Shown piece after piece: positions 347 to 64,000 of a stretch of DNA of 64,000 nt (position 1 is its first letter; each line of letters starts with the position of its first letter). Source of the DNA: Podarcis liolepis (Eukaryota); assembly GCA_965112155.1 (NCBI GenBank), contig OZ218098.1. One strand, 5' to 3'. The notes beneath the pieces were generated by a model. That model was not told the origin of the DNA. It was given only the letters and a program-made list of their open reading frames with translations, and made no database searches. The position numbers and the translations under genes are program-made.

Positions 347-438
347 GTTGATTGTTGTTGTTTAGTCGTTTAGTCATGTCTGACTCTTCGTGACCCCATG
401 GACCAGAGCACGCCAGGCACTCCTGTCTTCCACTGCCT
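347..438 (-). mobile_element. BovB/RTE LINE 3' end fragment
   Basis: Minus strand reads ..GGCGTGCTCTGGTCCATGGGGTCACGAAGAGTCAGACATGACTAAACGACTAAACAACAACAA, the typical BovB 3' terminus with (CAA)n tail. Confidence 0.8.
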
Positions 439-1800
439 AAACTCGACACAAGTATTTCCAAGGTGGGAAGAGTGAGTGTGTACATTGATGTTTGGGTGAT
501 GGGCACCATTTTGAATGAAAATAGTGAACCAAGACATTATTTTGGTGTTACTTTGCCCATTTTTGGCACAGGTTCAGTCATCTGTCGAGATCATAACGAA
601 ACATTGCACAAGGGTTCCCAAGATGGGGGCAGCAATCTTTGGCAATGTTTGGCTGCTGGATGCCAAGCCTGTGCAGAGCTTGTCTGAGACCCATGGCAGA
701 AGTCCCCTGTTGACTGGGAGGAATGGGGTATTATTGGCATGACAGTCCAGCAAGCCCCTGCCCCGTCCCCCAGCTGGCTTAGCCCTCTGAGGCCCGGGGC
801 AGGTATGCCTGGCTCCCCCCACTCTACACAGGCTTCCTGGACACCATCTTGAATCATGATGGCAGACCAAAACATGACTTTGGCATGACTTCACCCAATT
901 TTTGGCGGGACATGTCTAAACTCACAAATTACACTCCGTTTAAAAATAACAGGTTTCTAAAAATTCCCAGGCAGCGCCAAGCACCCCCTGCTAATAAAAG
1001 TGGCGGAACCATCTTAGTGATATTTTATATTAAATCCTGATGGGGTTGTGTGCCTTGTCTCTTACAACACATATCTTCCATCTAATAGATAAGAGCAGAG
1101 GTTAGACATATAATGGTCACAAGTTATCTCTGCTTTGTTGCCTTTGCAGTAAGTTTCACTCACTGTAGGAAGCAGCATTGCCAGATCTCCAAGCCAAGTC
1201 ACAATAAAGAGCTTCTCAGTCCTTTGAATTTAGCTAACAGTTCCAATAACTGTAAGTGACCCTAGGCCAGTACATACTGTCTATGCTTCCATAGATAGCC
1301 AGGTTTCCCCTGCAATGAGTACCTATTAGCGCCGGGAACAGAACAAACAGTGAGCTTCTTCTAAAAATATCCCATGCACACATAATGTGTAGGGAGTTCT
1401 CTCCATTCAAAACAGTGATCAGTAATGGACAATCGGTGTTCTGTTTAATAAATATAATGAAACCAGTAAGGAAGTATCAACAGAGTTTCTATGGAATCTA
1501 CAGTGCAATCCTATACTCAGAAGTGAAGTGAGCCTTGCTGAGTTCAATGGACCTTACTCCCAGCTCAGGTAAATGTGTATGGTATGACATCCTTAGAATC
1601 CCAATATTTTTAAAGCTGACCAATCAGCTCTTTCCCCCATTAAATCTGGGCACCAAATTAGCAAATGCATTCTATTCAGCTCAATATCCATTCTGTGTTT
1701 TTAATCATAATCTTGGCTGGCAGGGATGAGGGACTAACCTTCAGAAATAGGTTATGGACCTAGGTTTCCTTGGCATTCATGGAATTGCCATTATAATATG

Positions 1801-2637: not shown

Positions 2638-2643
2638 TATAAA
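2638..2643 (+). promoter_or_regulatory. TATA box of the OLFM4-like gene
   Basis: TATAAA(G) about 60 nt upstream of the signal-peptide ATG at 2700. Confidence 0.6.
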
Positions 2644-2699: not shown

Positions 2700-5600
2700 A
2701 TGTTTGGGCTGCTCCTGTGCCTCGCTGTGGCTTCCTTAGTGAGTATTTTGCCCAGTGAGGGAATGCAAACCAACTGGTGGAAGTGAGATAACCTAGGGTT
2801 GCCATTTTTCAAAAAGTAAAAATCAGGACACCCCAAAAATTGTTTGTTTGTTTTTTAAAAAAATGCCCCAAACACATGATTTTTCGATTGACTTGCCTAA
2901 GATCCAGGACAAAGTGCTGCCTTTCAGAAATTCCCTCGGAGGTCAATTCTGCCTTTGAAATCCCTAGATAATCCCAGCCCACCCTTCAAAATGTAGTACT
3001 TCCAGAAAGTGGCTTAATATTGTAAATGGGTTGTCCAGATATCACAAATGTAGTGGTGTGTTTTTTTAATTTACCAGATTTTCCGTAGCAAGGAGGGAAA
3101 TACAGGCTAACAATCTGATGCTGATGTACTGGGGATGCTGAGAAAATTATTCCGTTCATGAATGAGGAACACTTACCTGTGATTCCTGCATAGCAGGGGT
3201 GGAATAAATGACCTTTGAAATCCCTTTCAAGTCTACAGTTCTACGACCCCACAATAAACACCCACCTGGAAGCATCCCAAAAGCCCAAGATGTACGAGAA
3301 AACAAATGATTATTTCCCTTTGGCTTTGACACATCAAACAGGGTTTTAGATGCAACAATTCCTACTTGGAAATAATTTATACAGTGGTATAAAGAGCAGA
3401 AAACAATGCAAAGACTTGTGGGAGCAAAGAAGGCATGACATGGGTCTGGAGATTCTTGCATTTCATTCAATATTGTGAAACCATGTTTTTGTTCAGGAAT
3501 CACATGAGAAGCAACCAGAACTCAGTACTAAAGTGAGTTACTTAAGCTGCACATATACCTTTAAAGCATTTTCTGCTTCTGGGCACTGTCCTTTACTCCT
3601 TGCAGAGTTACGATTCCCAGCAACCCTTAAAAAACTGCAGCATCTAGAATTCTTTGAGGGAAAGAATGTGCTTTGAATATAAAAGTGTAGTGGATATACT
3701 CCAGTGGGAAGGGAAGGGAAGGGCAGGAGAGTAGAGTGTGAAGGGATTGTGGTTTAGCACGAGCAAGCGTAGATTGAAAGGAGTGGATTGAGGCTGTAGG
3801 AGAGCAATCAGCTCATAGGCCAAACGAACTACAGTGGCACCTCAGGTTAAGTACTTAATTTGTTCCAGAAGTCCGTACTTAACCTGAAACTGTTCTGAAC
3901 CTGAAGCACCACTCTAGCTAATGGGGCCTCCTGCTGCCGCCGACCCGCCGGAGCACGATTTCTGTTCTCATCCTGAAGCAAAGTTCTTAACCTGAAGCAC
4001 TATTTCTGGGTTAGCGGAGTCTGTAACCTGAAGCGTATGTAACCTGAAGCGTATGTAACCTGAGGTACCACTGTAGAAGCTTTATTCTTTCAAATGGTAA
4101 CTACCTAGACTCAAGTACAATCTGTTGGAAGAGACTTTACCCAAAAAACACAATGTAGAAGGCTCAGTCTAGTGGTGAATGGGGAGCATTTCCTGGCTAA
4201 AGGATGTGGTGGGGAGGTTGCTGTTCTCAGGAAACTATCCTGACCTTAGTTGACTATCAGGTTATGAGAAAGGGCTAAATCAAGCGATGAAGCATCCCAT
4301 TTGCCTTTCTGCATCCATCGTCCCAGGTTGCTGCAGATCAGATCATCTTCCACGATGGACCAATAGCAAGTGATGACGAAGACAATAAATGTATCTGCAG
4401 CATAGAGCTCCCCGACACTACTTTTCCTTCACATCTGATGGTTATCCTGGAAAACGCTTATAAGAACCTGACTGATATTTATGAAGAAGAAGGGAGCAAG
4501 GTAAGGGGGCACACTTCGGCACATAGACAGCATGCCAAATATTTATTCCCTGCCTAGAATCACTAATGCTGTCTAGTTCTGACTGTTTCCAGCAGCTGAA
4601 CAATATAACACAATCAGTGACTACAGTATCATATGAGCACTGATCCTGAGCATATTTTCTACAGTGTTTATATTTGCTTACATGTAAGATTGGCTTGTTA
4701 AGAAACTGAACTGCATCCTTCTCATATTAATTCTTGCAAGTCTGGCTGATGAAGCATTGAACGAAACAGATTGGTTATCCGGAAACTCTGTTCTGGAGAT
4801 ATTTGGTGACAGATTATGTATATATCAAACTTTTGAATTATTCTACCGCGACTGGTGAAGAAGATTTAGAGACTTTGGTTGTAATTTCTGATCATTTGTA
4901 TTAGTCTATAAATAGTGTTTAGTGCCATTGTTATTGGCCATCATGCTGTGTTATATTGTTCAGCTTGTCTATATTGTAACACAGGGGAATGGTACTGGCG
5001 GGGGGGCGTGTGTGTGACAGAATGTGGCTCACAGCTCACAGATCTTTCAAGGCATGTTAACCCTTCCTCCAAAGCACTGTTACTGGATAGCCCTGGTAAA
5101 ATAGTCCACCACCACCCACTATAAACTAAATTTGTCAGTCACAGAAGTGCTCCGAATTCTCCCGTCTCCACAGCCCAATGTTTGTGAAAGTGCAAAGTTG
5201 AAGTCTACTCATTGTCTGGATACACCTTCAAAACTGAGTGATAAAAGAATGGTTGTTCCAGAGAAAAGGACAAGCATGGAAGCAACAATTGTAATGAAAT
5301 GGTTGTTCATGATTTGTGGAAAGATGTTTTCAGTATCCTGCTAAGTGTGTGTCCTGTAAATTTCTCTAGGCTATGAAACTCCAGACAGACTTGGCATCAT
5401 TTAATAGTACCTTGAAGAAATTAACCGCAACAGTGCGTCAGGTTGAGATGGAAGGTATCAAGGATGAAGAAACTTATCAAGACCTCCTAGAAAAAATTAA
5501 TCATACGAAGCGATGGGCTCGGGATCTGACTAATGCTCTAAGTGCAACTGGTGCGGGCATTACATCTTTAACCGAACAGGTAGGTACAAAATGTTTGGGA

Positions 5601-7215: not shown

Positions 7216-9663
7216 TGTGTGTGTTTGTGCATGCTTTAGCCTCTCTCATTCAATCACTCATGAAGCTGTCAAACACATCTACTACCACAACACACAGGGA
7301 GACGCTGCAGTAGAAAATTGCTTGGGGCTGTTCAATTAAACATGTGCTAATATGTTTCAGGTCTCCAATGTCTTCAGTATTGTGTGGGAACTAGAAAAGT
7401 TTGACGAGAACAATGTGTTGTTGACACATAGGGAAATAGCCACTCTCAAGAAACAACTGGCCGATTGCGAAGACTCTGTTACAAATCCCAATTCTGGCCT
7501 CTCTCCCTCTGGAAACTGGACTCCAGAGTTTGGTGAGTCCTACCGTGTGATTGTGGGCTGGAACGTCTCCTTACATTGGTTTGTCTATAAGCTACATTAT
7601 CATCATCATCATCATTATCATCACCATTATCACCGTCACCAGTATTAATATTTATTTGTTGCTTTTTTCACAAAAGTGACTGAAAGCAGCTTGCACTGTA
7701 AAAACCACCATTAAAAACAAATCTAAGAAAAAGAATAACATCACGGCATAAAATGCTCATTGTATATAAAAGAGCAGATCCAAGTCAATCTGCCCCACTA
7801 AAAATGTGAGTGGAAGAAGACACCACAAACATAGTTAAGTACTCTCCCAAATGAACGGCCAAAAGCCTAGGAGAATAAAAAAAATGTTTTTGCCTGGGAC
7901 CTAAAAGCAGATAACACAACCAGGCATGCCTCCCTGGGGAAAGCACTCTACAAACGGGGAGCCACCACTGAGAAGGCTTGCTTCAGTCTGGTCACCCCAC
8001 AAACTTAACCCAGCTTCTTCTCACAACTAGCACATCCTCAGCGAGCTATTTGAGGCACCAGCTGACCCAGGAAAATTTTACCGTCATTTAAGCTTTGAGC
8101 TCTTTCACTAGATCAGTTCTCAGTTTGTACCGGTAGAGATCAGGGTAAAAGGAATTTCCTAATAATTACTGGATTACCTCCCACTTAATAGTTCTTTATA
8201 TTATAAAGAGGCCTGCAGAGCCCTTCTGGTGCCACAGGGTCCCCCCGCCATTTGACATTAGACTTGAAAGAAGCATTCTGTTGCACTTACTAATAGAATG
8301 TAGCATGTGCTTGTGCTTAGTGCTCACAGCAGTTCTCAGGTTTGCAAATGATCCCAAAAGGGATGATGACCACCTGCTTTAGTGAGAATTTTGGAAGGCA
8401 AACATGTAATGAACAGCTGATCAATGACAGTACAGAGGAGGAATTGGGAAGCATTATGCAGAGAAAACACAGCAGGGCAGAGGAGTCTGGGTTGGGGGGC
8501 CTGTCCCGTTTTCTAAACGCAGTGGGATAAAACTTGGCAAAGCTTTTGAAACCAACAGAATGCCTAACATGATCACAGAAAACAAAGATGATTTAGTTAC
8601 TTATCTTGTAAAATTTATGCACCTCTTGTTTATTAAAAAAACCAAAAAAAACCCAAAACCCTCAGAGCAGTTTGATGAAGGCGGAGAAAAACTTGTCAAG
8701 AGGAGCCACAAACAAAAGTAATTCCCTTTCTATTCCCTGGCAGGTAACTGCAACAACAAGGTGTTGATAAACGTTAGCAAGCCACTTATAGTGAAACTCA
8801 ACTGGCAAGGTTTAAGCTACAAATTCAGAGCTTGGGGAAAGGACTTTGCTGTTGGAAACAAGAATCCTGACGCATACTGGGTTGCCCCGCTCAACACAGA
8901 CGAGCGTTTGTTGGAAACCTACCGCATCTACAACTCCTATTCCGACCTGCTGCTCTACAAAAGCCAAATAGAGAAAAGCCTTTCTCAATTTGTTGGGTTC
9001 ACCTGGAACTACATCAACTGTGGGCAGGGAAGCGGGACTATTTTGTACAACGGCAGCTTCTATTACAACTGCTACAACTCCAGGAACCTGTGCAAGCTGG
9101 ATGTGGCAACCAGTAAGGTCCACCGCAAGACCGTCGAAGACGCCGTGTTCAACAACTGGTACTCTTATAGCGGAATCAATTGGCTGGACTTTGATTTCTC
9201 CGGGGATGAGAATGGACTGTGGCTCATTTACTCCATGGAAAAAAGCAAGGGGAAAATATCGATTGGGCAGCTGGATCCCAATACTCTGACAATAGTCGGG
9301 TCATAGCAAACCTCACTGTACAAGCCTAAGGCAACCGGCACCTTCATGATCTGTGGGGTGATGTATGCCTTGATGCAGGTGAGTGAACACAATGAGAAGA
9401 TCTTTTACAAATATGACACTAACACAGCCACAGAAGGCTCTATGGACATCATCCTGGAAAAGCTCACAGGCACACCGCAAAGCATAATGTACAACCCCAA
9501 TGACCACAAGCTATACATGTACAATGATGGCTACCTGGTCAGTTATGATGTGATATTCCGACGCGTACCCCTGTTCCAAAAGAGGAGCGTGGTCAGTGTG
9601 AAGAGCCAGATACTTTTGCATTGGTCAGTAAAAAACACTTCAGCTCACGAGACTTTGCCATAG
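2700..9663 (+). CDS. Olfactomedin-4-like secreted glycoprotein, 5 coding exons; in-frame TAG at 9304-9306 (null allele, young pseudogene, recoded site or sequencing error)
   Basis: Exons 2700-2738 (MFGLLLCLAVASL, signal-peptide-like, gtgagt donor), 4327-4500 (CICSIELPDTTFP, cf. OLFM4 CQCSVSLPDTTFP), 5370-5579 (coiled-coil), 7361-7532 (LEKFDENNVLLTHREIATLKKQLADCE) and 8744-9663 (olfactomedin domain: NVSKPLIVKLNW, AWGKD, YWVAPLNTD, GQGSG, DENGLWLIYS, FMICGVMYA, YNPNDHKLYMYNDGYL). All introns are GT-AG and phases join to 1515 nt. Codon 386 is TAG. Confidence 0.9.
3832..4073. mobile_element. Tc1/mariner (Tigger-like) MITE
   Basis: TIRs CAGTGG(C/T)ACCTCAGGTTA, TA on both flanks; inverted sister copy at 28455-28680. 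Confidence 0.85.
7165..7228. repeat. Compound (CT)n(GT)n microsatellite
   Basis: Direct inspection. Confidence 0.95.
7645..8000 (-). mobile_element. Decayed L2 LINE 3' fragment
   Basis: Reverse complement resembles the 3' part of the 37600-38520 element (GCCTTCTCAGTGGTGGCTCCCCGTTTG..CTTTCCCCAGGGAGGC). Confidence 0.6.
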
Positions 9664-9781
9664 CCTGAAAGAGAAAAAAGGCCAGGCACGCACAACATTT
9701 ACCTATTGGCAAATACATATTTTAAATGGTAAAAGTCTTGATTGTAAGGCCAGCAGACAGATTCTATCTTTAAAGGGTATA

Positions 9782-9787
9782 ATTAAA
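9782..9787 (+). terminator. Candidate polyadenylation signal (ATTAAA) of the OLFM4-like gene
   Basis: ATTAAA about 120 nt after the terminal stop at 9663. Confidence 0.4.
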
Positions 9788-10128
9788 CAAGCCCTTTTCT
9801 TCACAGTGGACTCAAGTGTCTACGTGTGTGAAGAGAACATGTCACAGGGTTGGCTGCTCTCACCATTGAACCTCCACTGCCTTTCCCTCGCACCAAATGA
9901 TTCTGGCAGTAACAGGATTAGGGCTTTGGTGTGGAATCTGCTATAGATCATGCCACTGAGTAACTAGGAGTTCATAAACAGCAGACATACACCCTGAAAT
10001 CACCTTGCGTGTGTTGTGCTTGTGTGTGTCTGTCCCCTCCGCCTAGTTATGACACCTTTTGGGCCTCTCCTCAGGTGTTAACATTTGCCATCTGGAGGAC
10101 ATAAGTTCCACAACACCTGAGCTTCACA

Positions 10129-10183
10129 TTTATTCATTTTCAAGAGTTGCATTGTAGGAGTTAATGTTGGGTTGCTCTTTATT
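10129..10183 (-). terminator. Two AATAAA polyadenylation signals of BCS1L
   Basis: TTTATT on + at 10129-10134 and 10178-10183, 150-200 nt downstream of the BCS1L stop. Confidence 0.6.
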
Positions 10184-10332: not shown

Positions 10333-11987
10333 TCAGGATATAAGAGCTTGCACGTTCTTAAGGGCTGCGTCCGGATCCGCCTTGTATAGCATGAAGTGGC
10401 CTTGGACTTGCGCGGCACTGATCTGATCAGAGGCGGACACGGCCTGTTTGGCAAACTCCTCGGCCGCAGCTGCTGGCTGGTCTGGGTAGAACCTCTGGAA
10501 CATGCGCCCGAGCTGCCACTCTGAGCAGTACCCCACGTACTGCTTCAGGTCCACCCGGCCAGGGCGAACTAGGGCTGGATCGAGCCTGCAGGGAAAGAGA
10601 AGAAGACAAATGAGGCTCAGCAAATGCTCAGGTGGGAAATATGGTCTCTATGCTCCTCTCACTTGGGGTATCATCTCCTTGTTCTCTCTCTAACCCCAAG
10701 AAGATACAGGGCTAGGGGAATCTGCTTTCCCCTTTATTTTTTTGAGCTACTCTCTAAAAGAATATAAAGTAACAGTGCCTTGTAATTTAACTACACCCAC
10801 GTCTTGCTGCACTCACCCATCATGCTCCTCTTTCTCCATACCTGCCAAGTTACCCATCCCCTCCTACAATCTCAGAGGAGCCTGCATGGAACCAGGAACA
10901 GTAAACAAGGACAGAACCAGATCTTCAGTTTCTGTATTAAATGCTGCAAACCAGCATGACCAAAGGAGCCAGAAGTCCATATGTATATATACCCCAGACC
11001 ACTCCCTAGAAAGCATGACCCCAGTGTTACCCAAAGCCTTACCCAGCCAGTTTTAACTGGCTGACCCTGTCTGCTGAGCATTTGCTCTTCTACCCCGCAC
11101 ATGACTCCTTCAGCACCAGGCTTACATGGCTGGCAGAGTCCTGTGCTTGTGGGAGAGGATGTGTCACAGGTCTTGGAGACTACAAGAGCCCCAAGATAAG
11201 ATTCTCTTCCGTCTTCTCCTATAGTATCATCTTCTGGAACAGGAAGTGTGTCTTCATTCCTGCTGCCTTCCTCCTTTTTGTACTTAAAATAGTTACCAGC
11301 TGGTCCCCAGAAAGGCAGACTTTGCCTCATAAAGACAGCACTTCCAAGGGGTGGGACACAAACTGCCCTCCTCTGTTACTCACTGCAATCTCCTTCTTGA
11401 CTGAGTTACAAGGAAGCTCATGGAGTTGCCTTGTGTGAGCTAGGGATGGACGGATCAGTTTATTTCGGGTCCATGTCCAAAGTGTTACAGGTGTTAAGTC
11501 TGCTCTGTTGCTTTTCCACTTTAAGATCTGTATTTTTTTTATTTAAAAAATCCATACAAAAATTCGTATTTAAAAATGCATTTTATTATAAATGCATATT
11601 TAAATAGTATTTATCACAGGGTATGCATCTCTAAATGCATTTCCTCCTAAAAAAATAAATCTTAATGCATTTTGGGAACCAAGGACTGTATTGCAAAATT
11701 TGGAGGAGGTGAAGGATAATTGTGAATTCGTTTGGGAGGTACAAATTTGGCTAGCTTGCTTGAAAATGCAGACAAAACAAAACTCTCCTCCACCCCTAGC
11801 TTGTCTTCACCTCAAAAACACCAATGGAGACATCTTAGGCACTGTGTTACTTGAGGAATCCTTGGTCCCACCAAGGGAAGTGAACCCTTTGGATCGAACT
11901 GGCCTACCACCAAAGGGACTCCATTTGCAGGCTTCCTCCCAGCCACTGAGCGGTGAAGTAGGCTGATTTGCTGGAATACTGGTCCTT

Positions 11988-12018
<31 letters not shown>

Positions 12019-15000
12019 CGCTGTTTCCCTGGCAAAACAACAGTCCTGCTCCTGTCTGTGTTTGGGCTACCGAGGGATTCAAAAACCTGTCTCAGGGGAT
12101 ACCTAGCTTCTCCTCGTGGCATGCTTTGGCACCGAATGTGAGAGGGTTGAGTGGAATGGGTTGGGCGAGGTTATCATGGTGTTAGTGTCCTCACCACATG
12201 CCGGCTGGTGGTTTCAATGCGTCACCAGTGTGGGACTTCATGTTGTGAGGGGAAGGTGATGAAGGAATTTCTCTATGGGACTGTCAGTTGTTGCTACATT
12301 GTTTCCTCCCCCTCCCCCTCCCCCTTTCCCCTTCCTAATTCTGTTACAACAGTTTTGATTTAGCTGCTGGAGGAACGTAGAATCCTAAACCACTGTAGAC
12401 TCCAGCCTATCAGCCACTACCTTCCTTGGGTGCCATTAAATGATCCTTCCCAAGCAAAAGGTTATCTTCTGCAGCTAACAACCTCTCTATCTGCCCCATT
12501 TTCTGTGCAACGCTTCTGACCTGTCCACATGATTGGTGGTCATGAATACAATCCTTGCTTCGGAGGAAGCCACACCATCCAACGCGTTGAGAAGGCCACT
12601 GAAAGTCAGGCGTCCCATGCCTTGGTATGCGCTGGGGTCTGGAAGGAAACACAGCGGCACAGAGACAGCTCAGAGGGAGACACTATAGGTACAGTTGTGA
12701 CCAAGGGCTGCCCAATTTCTGTCTAGGTTTATAGCCTTCCAGGGGAAGGGCAACAATCCCACCGTTGTGGTCTTATGTCACAGTAGTACCAGCTTTATGT
12801 TCCCTGCCTGATGTGCAGTGGCTTGCGAAATGTTCCTGACACACTGCTGTCCAAATAGATACATGAAGGGGTCGGAGAAAATCATGCCACCTGGTGGCAA
12901 AATGCAAGTCGACAGAAAGCAGGACAATAAACAGTCAGGATCCTATGTCCAAAGAAGGCTGGCAAAAAGAAGTGCCTCTAGGATCTCTGCTGGCAAATCT
13001 CTTCCACAGTGCAAAAGCTGTAAACTTGTCCCCAAGCGCCTGTCTTGTTTCAAGTCTCTCTTTGTATATGGATAACTGAATTGGAATAGGTGTCACATTA
13101 AAGCCTGCAGATAATTATTTATCATTATATTTATTCAATCTATTGGTAGCTTGCTACGTAAAAAGTATTGAAGTAACTCACAAAGTTTTAAAGACATAAA
13201 GCAAAAACAAGAACAAAAAAAAACCACTCAATAAGAAGAAAAGAGAGCAATACGTTGCATTTAAAAAGAAACTGTACCAAAAACCAGAGAACAGACACAG
13301 TAAAGCAGCAGGGGGGGAAACTTGGCAGCAAAGCATACCATCCAGCAAATCATCACCACCATCTGTCAAATACCTGAGTTAAGTTTTTACCTGGTGCCAA
13401 AAGAATTTTAATGATAGCCCCAAGAGGACCCCACTGTGAAGAGCATTCCACAAGTGGGGAGCCCTGACTGGAACACCCTCTTCCTTGTCACCACACTCCA
13501 GACCTCCCTCAGAGTGGACACCAGTAGAGGATCAAAAAATGAAGGGTCTGGTAGACATTTTCCAAAAGACATTGGTGTCCTGAGTCATTGACCCCTCTTT
13601 GTCAGTACCAGGTCACCAACCCGAATCCCATTGCAAAGTGCAGCTTGGAGGAAGGAGCTACTATTCAGCTCTCATTCCCCCCACTCTGAATGAACAATTA
13701 GCTTGGGAAAGTTGCTGCAGTGCAGCACTTAATCAGGATGCCTCCACAGAGTTACAACACAGGGGTGATGAACGCTTGGTCCCAGCTCAGTAAGAGGCAG
13801 CAGAAAAGGGCAGCCTGGAACAAAAGAGTGGGGAGGCGCCATCTGCCTGTCACTCACTTTCGGTAGCAAGATCCCGGCTGACGAAAGCAGCATCCACGTC
13901 CTCCAGGAGGATGATGCTCTGTTGAGGAGCTACGCTCAGGAGGTGGTTAAGACGATCATCAGAGAGGCTGTGGTCGCTCAGGCTCAGGAGACAGATGCTG
14001 TACTCAAGTTCTCCAGCAAGGGCTGTGCTGTGATAGACAGAGGACAATGTTTCCGCTGAAGAAAACTATGACAACGCCTTGTGCAAAGCTAAGCAGGGTA
14101 AGCTGTAGGGGAGTGATTCCTGACCAGGAGCTACACAAGTGCCCAGGGAGGTACCCTCAGAGACTGTATCCATGGGCAAATCCTTTGAGAAAAGGGGTTT
14201 TTTTGGAAGGAAAGCTGAGGACATGGTACTCACATGAAACTGCTCTTTCCACAACCTGGGGGCCCGTACAGCAGGTATCCTCTCCGATAGGGGATTCCTA
14301 CAGACAAAGAGGCTAGTCAAAAGGCAGAAAACGCAGCCTATTCCAACTTCTTTTGAAATCTGAGCTACTATCTCACACCCGAGAATAAGAATGAGCTGAT
14401 CGATGATGCCTTGAGCTCACCCCATAGTGGCCAATTCCAGTTGCTGAGAAAGAAATATATTGCACAGGGCCCTGACAGAGTACCCAATATCCTGCCACCC
14501 TAAAGGTTTAGCACTACTTTAACCAACTTGGCAAACAGTTGATACAAAGTATTGTGGCAAATGCCAGAAACTTAGTAAACATTTGGTTTATCAGTACTTG
14601 GCTGTGCAGAGACGAGCCAGGACAGTCTCTCTCGTAGGAAAGTAAGGGATAGTTCCTAATTCTCAAGGCCTGGGACTTTGCAGGGGCTGTTGTAGAGACA
14701 GCAATGAGGTTAGAAGAGGCTTCCCACTACACCCATGTCAGAGATGAGTTGTGAGTGCTAGTGGAGATAAGAGTCTGGGAATCCAGCCATATTTACAAGA
14801 TTTATTGCTTCTTTCGTGCTATGTACAATCAGCTTTGAAAGTCCGTTCCGGTCATGGCAAGTCAGTTGCCTCGACTAAAGCTGCTTTCGGTTTTCCCCAG
14901 CATAACCACCTCCTAAGCCCAACCCCCCTCCTTCCTCTCTTACGAGTGTGGCTTGGCCCCGGAAGTGCCTCCCCCCTCTCAGATTCATTGCCTCCTGACA

Positions 15001-16817
15001 GCCTGTCGTCACCTTCCTCGTCCGAGGAAGAACAGCTACTAATTAATGGAGGTTTGTCTCAATACGTTTCCATTCTCTCCCCCTTCTCTGCCTCCCATTC
15101 CCTGACAACTCATAAGATGAGAGAGGTCCCGCTGCACTCATAAGAACAGAGAGACATCAGCACAGTTGGGAGTCCAAAGCAGGAAGAAGGCGCAGGCAGG
15201 TTGGAAATGACAGGGATGCAGAAGGCAGCAGAGATGCCTTTGGGCACAATAGCAGAGGACATTGAGAATGATAATCTGGGCTAAATAATGGGATACGCTG
15301 GCTCTGCAAGTGGCATCCCACCTGCCTTAATTTAGTTCATAAAGGAAAAGCTCAGGTTGTGAGGGTATCTGAATGTCGCTCCCTGAAAAGTAAACTCACC
15401 TCGATCAATGTACCACTTGGGGTTACCAGTGAACTCTTGCACATCCCGCACAATTCTCTCGGACACTCCTTTCTCAAGCACTACAGAGGTGAGCGGACGC
15501 CGACGTCGTGGGAAACCAAATGGCCGCCATTCAGCCCCCATGGCTGTGTACATGACCGTCTTTCCTTCTTGCTGCCTCAGAGCCAATTCTTTGGCTGCAG
15601 AGAAAGGAACAAAGCTGAGGAAAGGGAGCTAACTGCACATCTGGATACAGATGGGAAGGAGGAAGAGGGAAATCGCCTGTCTGCTAAATATAACAAAGAA
15701 GCAAGGAAGCATCACCAAAGAGAATGTGTCAGTTTGGAGGGTAGCCCCAGCTCTAAGTAGGGGTACTTAAGGAACTGGAGTTCTGTGAATTCTGATGCAG
15801 AGTGATATAATTTGTACCTCCTGGAATCAGGTGCAGAACAGAACATAACTAGCCATCAGACTTTGGCCTTCTCTAAATTTTGAAATACAGTTTTCAGTTC
15901 AAAAAATGCCCAACGGCATGAAAAATGCATAATTTGGAATAAAATACATTTAGAAGTGCATAGAATGAGCTACAATTGTAGCTACTTCATAAAAATATAT
16001 TTAGGTATGTATTTAAACATGATTTTTTGCATATATATTTTTTTTTAATTGTAGATTAATGCAGAAACAGGATGGAATGGACTTACTAAAGAACACATGT
16101 AAAACAAACCTGGGTCCAGAAATAGACTGATCTATTCATCCCTAGCGCCAACATCATCATTAAATGTATTACCCACCCTTGCCAGCCTACAACCAAGGAG
16201 AGCTATTGTACCTTCCTGCAGGATGTTGAAGAAAACCTCTCGGTTGCTACCGATTGCTGTGAAGGTGACAGATTCCCAGGGGGTGCCCGTATGCAGGTCA
16301 ACCATTTGTTTCTCTCGGTTCCGTTCAATGCGGATCCACTTCCTTTTATACCTGGAGGCGGAGCAGGGAACATGTGAACAGGAACTGGTGGTGGGGAGAC
16401 AACTGGACGAGCAAGCATGCAATATTCATGACACCACTTCCTTATTAGCCCTGCAATACATCTGTCCATCCCAAAGACATTCCATGGCCTCACTTACCAA
16501 ATGAAATGGTTCCCAGGGCTGGGGATAAAGTCAAACTTGGTACTGATACGGCCACTCTCATGCTGCAGGTATGAGGTCTCCACGCTCAGGTGCTGGGTGT
16601 GCTTTGCATGGTGAGAGATCCAGCTCAGCAGCCAGTGGTAACTCTTGTCCTTGCTTGGCACCTCTAGGGTGATCATACAATGCCGCCTGAAAGCCACCAA
16701 GCCAAGCTGTGCCCCTTTACGGGCCAGGGCCAAGGCTGTACCTACACCCACCAGGCCAAAGCCTGCTCCGAAGTATGGATTGTCCTTCAGGGCCGAGACA
16801 AAGTCAGAAAAGGGCAT
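10333..16817 (-). CDS. BCS1L: Mitochondrial chaperone BCS1 (AAA ATPase, complex III Rieske protein insertase), 419 aa
   Basis: Exons (-) 16817-16498, 16351-16212, 15594-15400, 14297-14234, 14027-13858, 12638-12521, 10585-10333 total 1260 nt, all GT-AG. Motifs: N-terminus [30 protein letters not shown], Walker A GPPGCGKS, Walker [21 protein letters not shown]. Confidence 0.98.
11993..12018. repeat. (GT)n microsatellite
   Basis: Direct inspection. Confidence 0.95.
13110..13550 (-). mobile_element. Decayed L2 LINE 3' fragment
   Basis: Minus strand GGCTCCCCACTTGTGGAATGCTCT..TTTTGGCACCAGGTAAAAAC, same L2 3' motifs. Confidence 0.55.
14736..15107 (-). mobile_element. Solo LTR (Gypsy/ERV-like) in a BCS1L intron
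   Basis: TGTCAG..CTGACA inverted termini, 5-bp TSD ACCCA/ACTCA (1 mismatch), AATAAA on the minus strand at 14801-14806. Confidence 0.75.
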
Positions 16818-16996
16818 TGTTGTGGGTGGGGAAATAACTCCAGTGCTAAAGAGCCATTCCCAGCAGCATTTCTTCTAAACACCATAACAACACATGGAGA
16901 GGAAGAGAAAAAAACCAACAAATTAATTATGAAGTTATGGGTGGCAAGTATATTGGTTACCAGAAGACAAGCTTTATTGACAAATTCTCTTTAACC

Positions 16997-20790: not shown

Positions 20791-22045
20791 AGTTTGGCAG
20801 AAGCTGACAGAACTTTTAATTCTAAATGGGCAGTGCACTTCATTTTTTCTGGAAGTTTTGCTAATCGTAGAAATAACTATATCATCAAGCATACATGGCA
20901 CTTGCATATCTAGCACACTGTTACTTATGTTAATTTGGTCTGGAATCTTTCCTCTAAACAGTCTTGGGCGTGATTATCTACAGATGCATGCCAAAATGAT
21001 TAGGTAACATATTTGTGAGTTTTACTGTGTGCCAGTAGGCAGTTCTGTGTGCTGTTCTTACAGGAAGCAAATTCAAACCCCCAAAATGTATGTCCCAGTG
21101 TGAGTCTAATCCTGGAAATTAGCTTTTCATCCAGTTACAACTGCCCATCTCTGAGCCAGGTTTATCTGGAATAAATGCAGTGGAGTTCAGCTCTATGTGA
21201 AACTATTACAAAGGTGTTTAGACTCCAAGTTTTGAAGAAAAAATTCTGGAGCGAGTGTTCCTATTGATTAAAGTACTGGGCCCTACACAGGAAGAATTAA
21301 CATACCTTTACCAGCTAGAGTGAAAAAGAACAGCTTGGATTTATATATATATAATCTTGTACAGGAAGAAGTCTGCAGGATTGTAGTGTTGCGCTCTGCT
21401 GTGTTGCTAAAGCAGAACATTCTGCATATTGGTTCTGGGATGTAAAATGTTTTGCAGTAATGGAGATGCTTTAAACTGAGCTAATAGAAGACAGTAGACT
21501 GTCCTGGCCCGTGGAAGTAGACTGGCAAAACCTCTTCAGGCTGTGAGGGTGGGCTGCAAATAACCCAATAAATTGCTATCTTATCTAATGGTAGAGCAAG
21601 CGATAAAGACTATTAAAGTGTTTTCAGCTCTAAATTCTTCAGCAGTTTGCCTTAAGCCCTCCATACGGTTGGGTTTTAGTCTATTCCAGAGTTGATTGTA
21701 AAAACCACTGACATAGCTGCATAAACTTTCATCTTTCCTCTGTGCTTCTCTTCTCCAGGAAAGTAAATCTGTGAATATCCTGAATTTTCCCATCCTGAAC
21801 CAAATACTGTCCTGTTGAGCTTCCTACTTAAGCAGACATAGTTGCCAACTCTAATAGCTGCCTAATACTAACAAAGCTAACAGTTAATATTGGGCATTAC
21901 AAAACCACCCCATGCTCATTTATTTGAAAAACTTAATCCTTGGTTGCTTCTCTTCAGGCCAGCAATGGTACCATTTTCTTGCTATGTTTTTAACAGGAGC
22001 TGTACCCCACTTTATGTCATGGTGCAAGGCTACACTGAGGAGTGA

Positions 22046-23373
22046 ATGACAATGAGCACAGGAGCAGTTACAACGGAACCTGTGGGAGGAGACAAGATGA
22101 ACGCACTATGCCAGGAGCTCTTGCTACCCGGCTCAACAGATGCAGGAAATGAGAACAGCCATGGCATCTCCAGTGAGAACTTAGTGGTGGGACAAAGCTT
22201 GCTTTTAACAGAGGCTTCTGTGGTAGGAAGAGAAACTGCTGGTGTTGAAATATTTGTAGAAGCCGTGACTAGCAGCATGTCCCTCAGCAATCCTGGCAGC
22301 ACTACAGGTATGTTGTGCCCTGATAGGTCTTCGTAACCATGTAAGAATGAACCACTTTGTCACTGTCATCTTTTAGTGTGAGTGGTTTCTGTCATGTAGC
22401 ATTTGTATTGTAAAGGAGCAGCAGAAAGAAGCCTTAGGATCTTAGGTCTGGTACAAAAGGCCAAGAGACCTGTGAAAGAGTAGCCTGGCTTTTCTGCACC
22501 TGATGCTGTATTCTGTAATTGTAAGTTGCTTTGAGACATTTTAAGTAGTCAGCAGCGAATAAATGCAAGAAATAACGAGGGTAAGGTTTGTACATCTGTT
22601 ATCTGGGAGAAGGGATATCTGCCACATTGTGTTATCTGCTCTAGGAGTGGAGGGAATGGAGATTGTGTTCTGATCGGGGTTCCTGGGTCCTTGTTACTAT
22701 CAATTGTCCAGCAAGTCACCAAGATAAGCTTTGACTGTGGCTGGATTTGCTTGAGGCACTGTGAGCAGCTGAGATCGAAAAGGTGCGAGGTGTATTTGCC
22801 TAATAGGAGGAGGCAGGGATTTATTTTCATCGTATCTGATGGGATATTGCTGAGCTTGCAGTAGGCATGAAGCTTACTGTGGATCTGTTTGCTGCACCTT
22901 CATAAGGCTGCTTATGGGAGATACCCTTCAATGTCATGGTGATAAGTATTGGACTAATGCCATGGAATATAAGGACCAGAGGCCTTACTATGTTCTTTGA
23001 GGTCTGCAGTTTTGCCTGCAGTGCCTCTGCCATACTCAGTACAAATGACTGAACTATCTTTAGGACTAAGAAGCTAATGTCTTTATTAGGGCAAAGGGGC
23101 TGATACTGTGTGCCTCAACATCATCCTCTGCCCCTGTCTCTTTTAACAGCACAAGTGCTGAGGAGCATGAGGGGTATAGGAGATGGGAGAGTGCAGTGTG
23201 GTGCCTTGGAGCACGTTAAGAGCTTAGGAATTGCAGGGTACCATATTTACAGCAAAGTAGGGTGGGACGTTTAATTAAGGAGAAGACACCACTTACAGGG
23301 ACGTTTAGGTGGTGGCATGTGGGAAGGGGGCTTAGGTGTTGAGGAGTTGGAAGCTTACAAGGGGGTGATTGGC

Positions 23374-23414
<41 letters not shown>

Positions 23415-26400
23415 TTATTATTTATATCCCGCCCATCTGGCTGAGTTTCCTCAGCCACTCTGGGCGGCTCCCAATCAAGTGTTAAAAACCGTACAGCATT
23501 AAATATTAAAAACTTCCTGTAATGTGTATGGGTTGCTCGTGCGTAAGTTGCCGCCTCTCCAGGCTTTGTTGCCTTGCTAAACCTTTCAGTCTGGGCAGCC
23601 CTTCACTTCGTGGCTGCCTCAGTCGCTAGCAGAATCCGTCAGTGGGCGTTTCTTAAATCTTTTCCAACATAAAAGTTGTTTGACACCCAGTCTCCTCCTA
23701 CTCTCTCTGTGCGGAAGTCTTCTGCGCAGGGTGGGCGTGGGTAGCGGAGGACCCGTGCTCTCCCCGCTGGTGTCCGGTGAAGAGTCCTGGAGCCCTCTCG
23801 CCGATTCCCCCATCAGCCCCTCTATATCCCTGGTGTTGCGCTGATTTGCTTCCCCATCTGCGGAGCTGCCTCTCTCCCTGCTGGGCCCTTCTCCAGCATC
23901 ATTTGAGAGCCTTCCCTCCGCCTCTAGCTCCGATGTCAGTTCCCTGACACTTCCCTAAACAGGGCTGCCTTCAGATGTCTTTTAAAGATCCTTCAGATGT
24001 CTTTTACAGTGATCTTTTAAAGGAATTTAAGAGGCAAGATTCATATACGTGGTACACACTGAGACAGGGACACGTTTGAAAATTAAGCACTTGTCCTACC
24101 ATTGCCCTCCTTCAAATCAAAACTGGTGATCTTTTCCTGTGAAAATGTTTGGGTGTGGTTCTAAACACCTGAAGCATGGAGAGTCCCTCCCCCCACCCCC
24201 GCTCCAACCCATTTGAATTGAATCCTGTGTTCTGATAACAGTTCTTATAGATGACTCTCCACCTATATGCTGATGGCTGTGACAGAGCTTTGGAGAATCC
24301 TTGCTTGTAAGCTGACACAATTTTTAGTAATTTTTGCCTTGGATGAGATTTGAACTGAAGCATGAGGTAGGTGTGTGTGGATTTTTTTCTACCTTATTCT
24401 CAGCTGTTTTTTTAAATATCTCCTCACAGAGGTCTTGGTCAAAGTTGTGGAGCTCTATTTCTGCGAACGGTGTGGGCAGAGCTTCTCTGACCCCGGCCTG
24501 CTTTCCCAGCATCAGTGCATTGAGCTTACCAGAGGACAACTTGCAAGCATCCCTCAACTCCAAGAGCTACCACTGGGCCTTACAAGCCAGAGCCTGGCTG
24601 TCTCTGGAGAGCAGTCGACAGTCCATGAGGCGCAAGCGCAGGGCTTGCTGGATAGAAGCAGGCAGGACCCTGAATTCTGTACCGATCCCCTCTTGTGCCC
24701 TGTTTGCCAGGTGGAGTTTGCCTTGCTCACTGAGCTGAAGGAGCATTTCAGGGACCACCAAAAACCTACGGGTCCCCAAGTCTGCTTTGAGGAAGGCTGT
24801 CATTTCAGCTCGGAGGATCGCAAGCAACTCCGGGGGCACCTGCGGCACGTCCACCAGGTGTGCCCAGTCACCTGCACCTACCGTGGCTGCTCGCTCTTGT
24901 TCCGAAGCCGAGAGGACATGGACCTTCACCGCAGAAGCCACTTCCCGTTTCACTGTAGGCGCTGTGACTTCATCAGCGGCAACACCAAGCAGTTTGGGCA
25001 GCACCGACACAGCCATCTGCAGGAGGCCACACAGCAGGATGTAGAGGCAGCACTGGAGACGGGAGCAGTCGCTGAGAGCACTGAGCACAGCTTCACTGCC
25101 ATAGTGGGGAAGCGGCTCACCCATCATCTGCTTCTAACATCAGGTACTTGGGGCTGAGGAAGAGACTAGGGTGGGCAGAAGGGGGGATGCTTTGTAGTGA
25201 TGCCAGACACCTACTTCTTAAAACCCCCACTGGATCCTAGGGGTCTCTTAACTCACTTTTATGACAGCTTCCACTTCACTTAGAGACAACGCCATAGGCA
25301 GAGGTAAAGGGGTGAAGCTCCATTAGTCAGCCAGCTTTGTGGAATGATATTATTTGTGGATGTGGAAAATTATAGCATGAAGAGATGCTGGTAGATTCTG
25401 AATAGTGAACCATGGCAGGGAAAGGGATTTGAAACGGTGGGAAAGTTGGGGGGAGTGCAGTAGTCGAGAGCAGCTCTCCCTTTGAAAACGCCCAATGTTT
25501 AATCCTCCTCTCTGTCAAACTATGAAGGTCTTATTTCCACTTTTTATGTGTTCTACTTCCCTGTTCTACTTCCCTTTGCCTGGTTCTCAATATGCATTTA
25601 TTTGCATGTTATCATTTGCTCATCTCAAGCCTTTTCTCTATAAAAAAATGGAGTCCCTGGTTTATATTTCATTTTCTTTCCAAGGAAGGGAAGAACCACT
25701 GAGCAAGGCTGAGAATTGCTTGGAAGTTCAGAGTGGTTGGGATGTGACTGAAATGGAGCCTGGCCTGGGGGCACATGTTGGTAGCAGTCATGTGCCTCCT
25801 GAGGACTCAGGACCCAAGGAAGACACAGGGGATGAATTTCAGGAGGAGGAGGAGGAGGTGGTGGTGGTGGTGGAGAAGGAGAGCTTTGAGAAGAAAGCAT
25901 CTTCTAAAAGAACAAAGGCTCAGCTGATCAAAGGTAGAGACTTGCATTCATTTGCGAGCAGTACAGTTTCTGGCATTTCTTAGAAAAGCTTTTCCAAACA
26001 GCAAATGCACAGGCATATTACAGCATGCCCTATATTTGAAGAGGGTCTCCCTGCCTGAACTGGTTGTTTTCTTTCCTGAGTTCAGAGGCAAACTACTTCA
26101 CACATTAGTTCCCACTTCTGCTTGGAAATCTATTCGTGATGCTTTCTTTTCTTTGGAGTGGGGTGGAGCATTGAATGCAATGGCTATTCTCCAGTGGGTG
26201 CTAACTGATTCCCAATTATCCCTAAATATCCTGAGCTACCAGAAGCTCTTAAGCATAGGGTGGGGTTTTTAGATAAATTTTATATCTGTAAAAAACCACC
26301 TCTACTGTTATAGGCCATTGCAATAAATTTTTATTGTAGGGTAGAGAGAACACGGGAAGAGATTGCAGGAGCAACTGTTATTGCTAGGCAGGCAAAATAG

Positions 26401-29400
26401 ACTTCTGGAGCATGACCAAAGGCCCTTTTATTCATTCCTCTGCACTTAAGGCATGCTCCTCTCATTGCAGAAGGTGCGGTTGAGGACTCCAAATACCTGT
26501 TCAAGACCCACATGTGTCCCGAGTGCAAGCGTTGCTTCAAGAAGCGGACTCACCTGGTGGAACACCTTCACCTCCACTTCCCTGACCCCAGGCTGCAGTG
26601 CCCAAACTGCCAGAAGTTCTTCACCAGCAAGAGCAAGCTGAAGATCCACATGATGCGTGAGAATGGGGAGAAGGCCCACCGCTGCCCGCTCTGCCACTAC
26701 AGCTCTGTAGAGAAGAATGCCCTCAACAGGCACATGGCCAGCATGCACGAGGACATCTCCAACTTCTACTCGGACGTCTACTCCTGTCCTGTGTGCAAGG
26801 AGACGTTCAAGCTTAGCCATGCCCTCAAGGAGCACCTGAAGACCCACAAGGCAGAGCCCAAGCAGCTGAGCTGCTTTCAGGCCGACTGCAGCTACAGCAC
26901 CGAGGACCGCAAGGACTTCCTGCGGCACGTCAGGGAGGCACACTACATCAAAGCAGTAGAGTGCAAGTACTATGCCTGCTCCCTTCTCTTCCCCACCGCA
27001 GAGGTCATGGAAGCGCATCGCAAGACGCACTACGCCTTCCACTGCCAGCAGTGCGACTTCATCTGCTCCAACAAGCACGTCTTCCGCAAGCATAAGAAGC
27101 AAGGCCACCCGGGGAGCGAGCAGCTCCAGTGCAGCTTCTGCCCCTTTGCCACATTCAACTCTGTGGAATTCCACGACCACGTGGGCAAGATGCATGCCAG
27201 TGAGAAGATCCACAAGTGCACTGAGTGCAACTTTGCCACGGCGCACAAGAGGGTCCTCATCCGCCACATGCTGCTCCACACAGGCAAGTTTGCTTCCCTG
27301 CATGGGGACTCCTAGGGAAGCTCTGGAACGTGTCTGCTTGTTTGCTTGTCCCCTTTGTCTCCTGCTGTCTCATAGTGCTCTGAACGGCAGGTCTGTAGTC
27401 CTAATTTTCCTTCTCCTACTTTTACCCTTTTCCACTATGGGGTCGGTTGCCTTATTTGTATACTGCAGGACTAGGGAGACCTAGGTTAATATCCCTGATT
27501 CACAGAAGCTTTCAATGGGTTTTTTCTTGGGTCAGTCACATATTCTCAGACTTAACTTGCCTCACAGGGTTTTTGTCGGGGGAGGTGGGAGCTGAGGTGG
27601 GAACTACAGGTGCCACCTCGTGCTCCTTAGAGGAAAGATGTGAAATAATGAAATTCATACCTTCTAAACTTGAAAGGAAGCTCCTTCCAGACCTCTACTT
27701 TGATCATTGTGATGAAGGGAGACTTAAAATTTAGATATAGATTGAGCTCCCACAGGTTAGACTTGTTTTTCTTGTACAAAATCCTGGCCTTCTGGGGTCC
27801 CCTTCATGCAGGTTCTGCCCCCACACCTCTTGTTGAAAGACCTAGATTCTGTACTGGAAAGGGACTGAGATTCTTTAGTAAAATTTAGGCAGATTTGCCA
27901 GATTTCCGAACTTTAGTTTGCCAACAGAATTTCAGTTCTGGTTGTAGAGTTCAACAGTCTTCAGTATAAAGTTAGATTCCCTGACTAGGCTTTTGTTGGG
28001 GTTTGCAATTTTTGGCAGCCCATTCCCCATTTTAGTTGCAATTTCCCACCAGCCTTTCTTTTTCCCAGCTAGCAGTCTTGGATGCAGCTAGGTGAAGGTG
28101 CTTAGGGCACTGCCGCATTTACCTGCCCACCCCAACCTCCCAGCAAGCCCCTCCAGAGCAGGAAGGTCTGGCAAGCAAAGGGCAGGAAGTGGAGAAGGAC
28201 TTTCCAGTTTGTGGCCCTGCATGGCGAAGGCACTCGCCATGGTGATGCAGCGGCCAAGCAGCCCTAGCCTTTCTCCCCACTTTGGAGTGAGAAAGAAGCA
28301 GGGATTGCTGTTTAGCTGATGGGATCATTGCCACTCACCTCTACACTTGCACTGTGGGAAGGCATGCTTGTTGCTTGTTAACACTAACTTGAGGTCAGTG
28401 CCACACATGGTTGAAACTTAGGCGGCATCCATACACAGTGACAGTATAGCAATACAGTGGTACCTCGGGTTACATACGCTTCAGGTTACAGACTCCACTA
28501 ACCCAGAAATGCTACCTCGGGTTAAGAACTTTGCTTCAGGATGAGAACAGAAATTGTGCTCCGGCAGCACGGCGGCAGTGGGAGGCCCCATTAGCTAAAG
28601 TGGTGCTTCAGGTTAAGAACAGTTTCAGGTTAAGAATGGACCTCTGGAACGAATTAAGTACTTAACCCAAGGTACCACTGTATGCTGTGGGAAGGAAGTG
28701 CTACTGTTTATTTTGCGGGGGTTTTTTTGTGGGGCGGGGCAAAGTAGGGCCTCGTTTTAAATTGAAAATCTGCTGCCCTCAAGGGGCACTGCGGGCAGGA
28801 CTGTCAATCCACAGCTTCCAGTTTGCTCTGTGACTTTAGGAGAGAAGCCTCACAAATGCCAGCTGTGTGACTTCACTTGCCGAGATGTGAGCTACCTTTC
28901 CAAGCATATGCTGACCCACTCTGACGACAAGAACTACATGTGCACCGAGTGTGGCTATGTGACAAAGTGGAAGCACTACCTGAACGTTCACATGCGGAAG
29001 CACACGGGAGATCTGAGGTACTGAGAGACCCCCTTCCCATTCCCCTGGCTTGTTTCCTGTATCAGGAAGTAATCTGTATGCAGAGCTGAGGCCTTTCTCC
29101 TTCCACGGCCTTGACCCACTCTTGTTTTGTGTGCAACCAGGTATCAGTGTAACCAGTGTTCCTACCGCTGCCACCGGGCCGACCAGCTGAGCAGCCACAA
29201 GCTGCGCCACCAGGGCAAGTCCTTGATCTGCGAGGTGTGTGGCTTTGCTTGCAAGCGCAAGTATGAGCTGCAGAAGCACATGCAGGCGAAACACTCCCAG
29301 AACTACCAGTCTCCCGTCTTCCAGTGTCAGTACTGCAGCTACCAGACCAAATACAAGCAAGCCCTGCTCAACCACGAGAACTGCAAGCACACCAAGCAGA

Positions 29401-62575: not shown

Positions 62576-62924
62576 AGGTTAAAGGTAAAGGGATCCCTGA
62601 CCATTAGGTCCAGTCACAGATGACTCTGGGGTTGCGGCTCTCATCTCACTTTATTGGCCGAGGGAGCCTTTGCACAGCTTCTGGGTCATGTGGCCAGCAT
62701 GACTAAGCCACTTCTGGCGAACCAGAGCAGCGCACAGAAACACTGTTTACCTTCCCGCCGGAGCGGTACCTATTTATCTACTTGCACTTTGACGTGCTTT
62801 CGAACTGCTAGGTTGGCAGGAGCAGGGACCAAGCAATGAGAGCTCACTCCGTTGCGGGGATTCGAACCGCCGACCTTCTGATCAGCAAGCCCCAGGCTCT
62901 GTGGTTTAGACCACAGCACCACCA
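62576..62924 (-). mobile_element. Sauria SINE (near full length)
   Basis: (ACCTTT)n tail, core GGTCATGTGGCCAGCATGACT / TTTACCTTCCCGCCGGAGCGGTACCTATTTATCTACT, B-box GGTTCGAATCCC on the minus strand. Confidence 0.9.
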
Positions 62925-64000
62925 CTAAAATCTTGTTGGAGTCAATGAAATAAGTTAATCCTAGTTCTGTACCTGGAATACTGGGATGTCTACAGGTATA
63001 TGCATAGTCAGTTATCAGTGTTCACCATCCATCAAGGATAGAAACCTCCACCCAAATTATGCATTGGAAAATGCCTTTGTACCCTACTATCCATGGCATG
63101 CAAACTTCCATTCAGCAAAAGCTCAAAATACCTTCCTCTCTCCCCCTCCCTCTGTCCCAAGAAATGCTCTTCCTTAGATGATCAAACCTTTAAGAGTTTT
63201 CTCCTCTAAGCTGTCAGTGTCTAGATTCAGATTGCTCCATGCTATTTATGGCTATAAACAATCCTCCTCTCTTTATAATAAACCACATATTCTTCAAATC
63301 CAACATCAGGTTTATTCCTAACTCACCCTTGTATAAGTTGTCCCATGACATGCTGTGACTCAAACTAGCTAAAAACCCAAACATGTGTTCCTGCTGCGCA
63401 CATGTAATCACAGACATATGTGGACGAGGACATGCAGTAACAATCCAGGTTTATACCACAGTTTATTTCACACTGTCATCAGTAATGGATATTCCTAGGA
63501 TCTGGACCTCAGTTGCCTGTGATCTGGAAGTGATTGATGAAAATGGAATTCTATTGCAGCCCAGAGCTGATAAACATTTCATCTGCAGTACTCAGAATAA
63601 TAGCCATTAGAGGATTCCAAAACCGTAATGCTCCTGGCAAGACTATGTATATGCTGAGCTTCTTGGATAGTAGCCATTTGATAACCGTATGTTCTTTACA
63701 TTCATCTGGTCTGGGGGGGTTTAACCTTGCAGTCACCAATGGTCTTTGCCATTACTGTAAATGTCATTACAACAACTGTTAAGGAGCTTCTAAGGACAAA
63801 TGTTTTAGTTGCTTAAACCCTGCATCTTATCATCACGGACCACACCATTTGTAAAGGAACAAGGTTGCTAGAGATGGAAGAATATTCAGGAAAATCCTAG
63901 GGGCTTTTTAAAAATCAAAGGGATCTGTTGTCCCTCTTAAAAACAAAAAAATCTGATCCAGCAAGTGAGTGAGTGCTTCCTTCCACCACCAAATGTTTCT

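Follow-up and report, generated by a model that had tools for sequence, protein, structure and literature searches.

A nonsense mutation on two haplotype backgrounds of an olfactomedin-like gene that has probably escaped selection in Podarcis lizards

In the 64,000-nucleotide stretch of Podarcis liolepis contig OZ218098.1 (assembly GCA_965112155.1) analysed here, hereafter the window, an olfactomedin-like gene carries an in-frame TAG where tryptophan is expected, with a long open frame behind it. The question raised by this locus is whether such a codon reflects an assembly error, a recoded message, a null allele among working ones, a shortened protein kept for a role of its own, or a gene that is being given up. 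We find that the TAG is a true nonsense mutation in the genome, common to two species labels on two haplotype backgrounds. The gene has very probably lost purifying selection in Podarcis and is probably turning into a pseudogene, with different lineages taking hits of their own.

The stop codon and its age

The TAG occupies positions 9304–9306 and is followed by 118 open codons, up to a TAG at 9661–9663. It stands at codon 386 (W386*, TGG>TAG) of a 504-codon frame in five exons, all with GT-AG splice sites, and the reading of an earlier note on this DNA, that the TAG is in frame with olfactomedin sequence and has 118 open codons behind it, is confirmed from the letters. Tryptophan is indeed the normal residue here, as that note had stated: of the 128 homologues aligned (the best 120 of 198 matches plus eight cluster members), all have Trp in this column except a single lamprey protein (127 of 128), and so do the solved myocilin and noelin domains that were displayed.

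At the DNA level, the exon 5 region (8700–9800) was compared with three covering runs out of 24 listed, namely X1, X3 and X17; X2, from the same sample as X1, gave no contig here. X1 (organism A; contig depth 80.5, 8700–9602) reads TAG and differs from the window at five of 903 bases, although it is possibly the source sample of the window and hence may not be independent. X3 (organism B, from another sample and study; depth 20, 8700–9550) also reads TAG, with nine differences in 851 bases. At 8752, 8807, 8827, 9185, 9236, 9298 and 9299 its bases are those of the outgroup, and at 9277 it has a base of its own; positions 9277, 9298 and 9299 all lie inside one 31-mer with 9305. Because the X3 contig has a Lys codon 384 beside the TAG, the stop is older than K384G, and because the same contig has the ancestral state at R220Q, G227R, Q346L and T363M, it is older than these as well. 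Divergence from the window is 1.3% for organism B (15 differences in ~1,100 bases) and 3% for organism E, the source of X17 (31 in 1,036). By a rough estimate, such divergence probably dates the stop to some few million years ago. The null allele proposed in the earlier note is upheld, but not its description as very recent or segregating, since another species label also has the stop, there on a haplotype of its own, and at least six later substitutions lie between the X3 haplotype and the window. A consensus error of the assembly, the other simple explanation offered there, we regard as practically out of the question: even if X1 were the window's own sample, the contigs of X1 and X3 both have A at 9305, and X3 differs in organism label, sample and study, with a haplotype of its own that argues against a mislabelled or contaminated run.

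Further lesions and the pattern of change in exon 5

The five exons, the splice sites and the signal peptide reported earlier were all found, as was a TATAAA for the TATA box, and exon 1 fits the N-terminus of the Zootoca orthologue. The features of the gene and its immediate surroundings are as follows.

2638–2643, plus strand: TATA box candidate (TATAAA), 62 nucleotides (nt) 5′ of the ATG, called from sequence only
2700–2738, plus strand: coding part of exon 1 with the start of the signal peptide, matching residues 1–15 of the Zootoca orthologue
4327–4500, plus strand: exon 2, with the end of the signal peptide, the CxC motif (C35, C37) and the start of the coiled coil, 90% identical to the Zootoca orthologue
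5370–5579, plus strand: exon 3, coiled-coil region, from the sequence and the Zootoca alignment
7361–7532, plus strand: exon 4, with the end of the coiled coil, C177 and S146F, from the sequence and the Zootoca alignment
8744–9663, plus strand: coding part of exon 5, with the whole OLF beta-propeller and the C-terminal tail (Pfam PF02191, structure model)
8765–8776, plus strand: empty site, codons 206–210, of a putative 11–12 nt target-site duplication in organism E (contig overlap)
8827–8829, plus strand: G227R at an invariant Gly, in the window and X1, not in X3
9184–9186, plus strand: Q346L at a near-invariant Gln, in the window and X1, not in X3
9298–9300, plus strand: K384G, a double substitution 6–7 nt 5′ of the stop's A; X3 retains the Lys codon beside TAG
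9304–9306, plus strand: W386* (TGG>TAG), TAG in the window, X1 and X3, CGG (Arg) in X17
9600–9603, plus strand: 1-nt deletion that frameshifts the C-terminal tail (Zootoca alignment, run X17)
9782–9787, plus strand: polyadenylation signal candidate (ATTAAA), read from the letters alone
10333–16874, minus strand: the convergent neighbour BCS1L (Pfam and PDB matches)

The gene is a member of the olfactomedin-domain family, which was also all that a protein-atlas search returned. With X at the stop, the exon 5 translation matches Pfam OLF (PF02191) at E = 1.6e-65, and the structure model (X at the stop; predicted local distance difference test score 91) has the olfactomedin-1 propeller 6qhj as its top Foldseek match (E = 7e-24, template modelling score 0.93 by target). 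The translation contains a signal peptide, seven N-glycosylation sequons and the CxC, DExGLW and CG motifs, the last of these 3′ of the stop; all three motifs are given as olfactomedin motifs in PMC4206993.

The copy in the window is damaged beyond its stop codon, contrary to the earlier description of it as otherwise intact and without a frameshift. The Zootoca protein falls by tblastn into two frames, residues 199–486 at 8743–9606 and residues 485–506 at 9600–9665, and run X17 has an additional A after 9600, so that one base has been lost in the window near 9601. The orthologous tail runs on in the other frame to a stop ending at 9668. The 118 codons taken for good olfactomedin sequence are thus open throughout, but the last ~19 of them are out of frame. 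By itself this frameshift is mild and the weakest of the lesions, as the OLF domain is already complete before it and Lacerta agilis too has an altered tail; X3, whose contig has lower depth and aligns slightly differently, has no extra base near 9600 either, like the window. More severe are G227R, in a column that is Gly in 128 of 128 homologues, and Q346L, where Gln is found in 126 of 127. The window also has S146F, where all 14 squamate orthologues have Ser. Two side observations concern the same tail. The X1 contig has a hole at 9603–9635 that opens exactly where a 1-nt deletion would make alleles diverge, and this sample may be heterozygous for the frameshift. At 9570–9590, lacertids have FQKR or FKR before the variable tail and other lizards R-x-R/K-R, which we take to be a furin-type site.

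Other Podarcis copies bear hits of their own. In run X17, exon 5 follows exon 4 directly, the last 30 nt of exon 4 being spliced to 8743/8744, and so the run behaves like RNA. It has neither the stop nor the tail frameshift, and its codon 386 is CGG (Arg), one transition from TGG. It carries W229L, R259C, A407S, I418S and D452E at columns 86–99% conserved, and four of its derived residues recur only in the P. muralis protein of RefSeq. That protein has Trp386 along with R259C, Q346H, A407S and a one-residue deletion, and the RefSeq P. raffonei protein has W358C. As an observation on these models, that of P. raffonei begins with a match to an upstream frame at window positions 394–687, not to the signal-peptide exon, and that of P. 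muralis begins in intron 1; the starts of both models look like errors of annotation.

Two X17 contigs overlap on 8765–8776, and each runs into foreign sequence where the window has an empty site. Reverse-complemented, one loose end reads (ACCTTT)2, and the 11–12 nt overlap starts with T on that strand. According to PMC13295347, the Sauria short interspersed nuclear element (SINE) has the 3′ end (ACCTTT)n and 77,228 hits in P. muralis, and its target-site duplications start with T and are characteristically 10 nt or more in length. From the 27 and 31 nt of its ends that are seen, which do not include the middle, we infer that an antisense SINE inserted into exon 5 of organism E at codons 206–210; a transcribed retrocopy from elsewhere could also produce such a signature. 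Within the window, the ends of a SINE-like element at 62580–62925 (~345 nt), which has stops in all three plus-strand frames, resemble the X17 loose ends (by eye 21 of 27 letters, and ~16 of 18 with one gap), and motif searches with the two insert ends were not above chance (two matches, a number reached by 12 of 100 shuffles, and one match, reached by 18 of 100). A short end similar to this element also lies at 54439–54460 on the minus strand.

The substitutions in exon 5 fit neutral evolution both before and after the stop. Across four haplotypes, 26 nonsynonymous and five synonymous changes were counted over 8746–9600, omitting the two changes at codon 386, with the ambiguous 9600 counted as silent and one X17 row missing. 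This proportion agrees with neutrality (P = 0.12–0.37), and a nonsynonymous-to-synonymous rate ratio (omega) of 0.3 or less is rejected (P at most 4.5e-4); between the window and X17, the corresponding ratio of per-site differences (pN/pS) is 1.22. Downstream of the stop, where the earlier note had suggested looking for continued constraint, purifying selection is not seen: from 9306 to 9600, the window differs from X1 and X3 by seven residue-altering changes and at most one silent change, and the tail frameshift adds to these. The positions of the changes point the same way. Of the 32 amino-acid changes that vary within Podarcis, 10 affect columns with conservation of 90% or more, close to the 27% (70/259) expected under neutrality, whereas none of the 22 changes of Lacerta agilis and Zootoca does (Fisher P = 0.003). 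The difference persists without the stop (9/31, P = 0.007) and without both the stop and three X17-only changes at conserved sites (6/28, P = 0.028). Column conservation was taken from 116 rows outside the lacertid-amphisbaenian group after seven isoform or duplicate rows had been dropped. A wider control with six other squamate pairs (11 of 226 changes at conserved columns) is not relied on, as it is partly circular, its rows having helped to define the columns.

These data are consistent with a sequence of events in which selection would have been relaxed at or near the base of Podarcis, after which TGG>TAG would have arisen in an ancestor of the A and B haplotypes. G227R, Q346L, K384G and others would have come next on the window's line, while the line leading to E, without the stop, would have gained W386R, W229L and the SINE in the exon. 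Several points weigh against this account. No damage is seen in the splice sites, the TATA box, the signal peptide or any cysteine, which fits a young age and would also fit residual function, and the transcript of organism E is still produced and spliced. In the RefSeq proteins of P. muralis and P. raffonei the frame is open and Trp386 is retained, and so the gene is not formally dead across the genus. The ratios above come from plain Nei-Gojobori counting with 31 changes, over ~677 nonsynonymous and ~175 synonymous sites in 8746–9600; they cover exon 5 only, come with no control gene from the same runs, and include within-genus polymorphism, which raises pN/pS even in working genes. Contigs also drop alleles, which places homozygosity or fixation of the TAG outside what the runs can show, and the X1 gap together with its five differences from the window is compatible with heterozygosity.

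Competing explanations

That last point bears on what we consider an unlikely alternative, namely that the TAG belongs to an old, low-frequency or introgressed null allele segregating beside working alleles of a gene under weak selection. It would account for the differences between X1 and the window, for the ancestral S447 codon of X1 and for a break at 9603–9635 that looks like an unresolved bubble; it is compatible with contigs that cannot show homozygosity and with two open RefSeq Podarcis proteins, and introgression among wall lizards is documented (PMC10990284). Nonetheless, the TAG is found in three of three, the window and both genomic runs that cover the site, those Podarcis alleles that do have Trp carry damage of their own at near-invariant sites, and all haplotypes taken together show a neutral ratio of changes. 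A different alternative retains the shortened protein. A stop in the last exon would escape junction-dependent decay, and a chain with signal peptide, CxC, coiled coil and partial propeller might leave the cell and have been retained because it acquired a new function or acts as a dominant negative, as the earlier note had in part allowed. C35, C37, C177 and all splice sites are preserved in favour of this, and the family oligomerises through N-terminal disulfides (as described in PMC4206993). On the other hand, the changes before the stop are likewise neutral and hit conserved residues (R220Q, G227R, Q346L and S146F; DNA comparison in exon 5). In the structure model, seven strands lie 3′ of the stop, read as one whole blade and three strands of the closing blade, and the Cys of the invariant CG motif is lost with them. 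By analogy with myocilin Q368X, also a premature stop in the last exon and inside the OLF propeller, the 385-residue chain would misfold and be retained or degraded. The lizard stop presumably lies ~49 residues beyond the myocilin one, which is a human disease-associated allele in another subfamily, whereas the lizard stop is common to two species labels. Since Q368X purifies only as a misfolded aggregate and its secretion is impaired (PMC13750402), we hold a functional truncated chain to be very unlikely.

Two forms of recoding would leave the full-length protein in place, and we give both even less credence. UAG is the preferred triplet of ADAR, and editing to UIG in the mRNA would restore Trp. 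A 201-nt fold does place A9305 in a 9-bp helix (pairing 0.94–0.98), a length equalled or exceeded at only six of 209 exon adenosines, but its partner shifts with the size of the folding window (none, 9272, 9218 or 9412), the helices span only 6–9 bp, and the region folds like its shuffles (z = 0.01). The best pre-mRNA duplex has −32.1 kcal/mol, equalled or bettered at 11 of 30 control sites, compared with −78.9 for a perfect duplex, and the site lies outside all 25 longest of 56 inverted repeats. Antisense overlap is not predicted either, given polyadenylation-like signals on the BCS1L minus strand at 10129 and 10178. The only RNA run compared, X17 from another organism, reads CGG and not TGG, and an edited product would still have G227R and Q346L in a neutrally evolving frame. 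Editing is thus left unsupported, excluded indirectly by the neutral frame and by the lack of a stable long duplex over 9305, and we rate it as highly improbable. Readthrough of the stop, producing enough full-length protein for function, seems to us scarcely credible. The base after the stop is C, a weak termination context, yet this C belongs to the ancestral Gln codon of the Trp-bearing orthologues and is hence not selected, and the following CAAACC agrees with the readthrough motif CARYYA at only four of six positions. When UAG is read through, the residue put in is Gln, Tyr or Lys and not Trp (PMC7764779), in a column that is Trp in all but one homologue, and the product would also keep G227R and Q346L amid neutral evolution on both sides of the stop. 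Splicing around the stop was rejected as well: in-frame AG dinucleotides occur at 9305–9306 and with their ends at 9324 and 9330, none with a polypyrimidine tract, skipping would delete most of the propeller, and X17 RNA has no splice joints around the stop.

We thus favour a genuine nonsense mutation in a gene released from selection. The lone TGG>TAG in a seemingly intact gene would then be the outward sign that constraint has gone throughout the genus, which closes the candidate for recoding. The locus would offer a dated series of natural knock-outs (a shared stop, later missense decay and a separate SINE), usable as a phylogenetic or introgression marker. Although RefSeq annotates both of its Podarcis models as protein-coding, neither is likely to be functional.

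Relatives, neighbourhood and comparison with known systems

Over exon 5, the best matches are olfactomedin-like proteins of P. muralis (XP_077779540.1, 94% identity) and Zootoca vivipara (XP_034966191.1, 90%), and the first cluster also includes P. raffonei (XP_053231030.1) and Lacerta agilis (XP_033016803.1). The window joins the lacertids with support of 1.0 and the two Podarcis more weakly (0.78–0.80). These four orthologues are in the same clade, and the exon boundaries are the same as in Zootoca; all four have Trp386 and an open frame, and three have the unshifted tail, in contrast to the window, while the two Podarcis proteins have changes of their own at near-invariant sites and Lacerta and Zootoca have none.

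The earlier name, OLFM4-like, is borne out as a likeness and not as one-to-one orthology. In a FastTree analysis of 65 sequences and 317 columns, the gene groups with squamate proteins only, in a clade that has support of 0.99, divides into three subgroups and is separate from the OLFM4 clade of birds and mammals; joining nodes have support of 0.44–0.55, deep nodes are weak, and the lamprey rooting rows do not form one clade. OLFM4 and bullfrog olfactomedin (subfamily V) share with it the signal peptide, CxC, coiled coil, C-terminal OLF, DExGLW, CG and the N-glycosylation sequons, seven in the window, and OLFM4 likewise has five exons (PMC4206993), but domain identity is only 42–49% to OLFM4-named proteins of mammals and tinamou and 43% to bullfrog olfactomedin. 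The neighbours, by Pfam and PDB matches, are BCS1L, ZNF142 (~22000–34665, plus strand) and a PLC-delta-type gene (~42500–56500, minus strand), a setting from which that of human OLFM4 presumably differs. Sequence comparison makes it safe to regard the gene as a squamate-specific OLFM4-like paralogue beside BCS1L, for which the name OLFM4 is not safe. By analogy with the bullfrog protein (PMC4206993), a working copy would be a secreted, disulfide-linked glycoprotein of mucosal surfaces. We found no report of this gene or its loss in the literature searched, which had most subscription journals outside its scope; in the wall-lizard literature found, olfactomedin occurred only in a reference and as OLFM2.

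The adjacent Phrynocephalus locus tags JRQ81_001920 and 001921 belong to subgroups A and B, which suggests that these are tandem neighbours. Queries with Sceloporus and Lacerta paralogues returned subgroup B in Lacerta, Zootoca and many lizards. No Podarcis protein of groups B or C appeared among 95 and 74 matches or their clusters, and no snake protein in the best 120 of 198 matches or in the subgroup B listings; as the search was word-indexed and length-limited, both absences are only a lead. As a tentative and rather doubtful extension, Podarcis might have abandoned the whole squamate olfactomedin-like cluster, including the tandem paralogue that is intact in Lacerta and Zootoca, and snakes likewise, in a repeated loss in progress of a secreted mucus-type glycoprotein. 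The BCS1L-side copy would then have been knocked out independently in several lineages, with two of the hits in one Trp codon and another due to a SINE. If the paralogue were also lost, comparing Podarcis with Lacerta and Zootoca would be a direct route to the function of squamate olfactomedins. Elsewhere in the window, two copies of a ~220-nt element, 90% identical and in opposite orientation, lie at 3830–4076 and 28465–28682, with inverted repeats at 3829–3854 and 4051–4076; the pair is probably a non-autonomous DNA transposon.

Among known systems, the locus most closely resembles young unitary pseudogenes. The germ-line lesion sits at the original locus (TAG in the window, X1 and X3), introns and orthology are intact, and coding evolution is neutral, as seen in exon 5 only; tblastn found no second copy of the gene within the window, and no Podarcis paralogue was among the 95 and 74 matches. 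What sets the present case apart is that the loss is partial across the genus, two RefSeq species having open frames. In the other respects it is like that general class, which combines a lesion at the original locus with an intact exon-intron structure, a neutral pattern of substitution, independent lesions in sister lineages and continued transcription.

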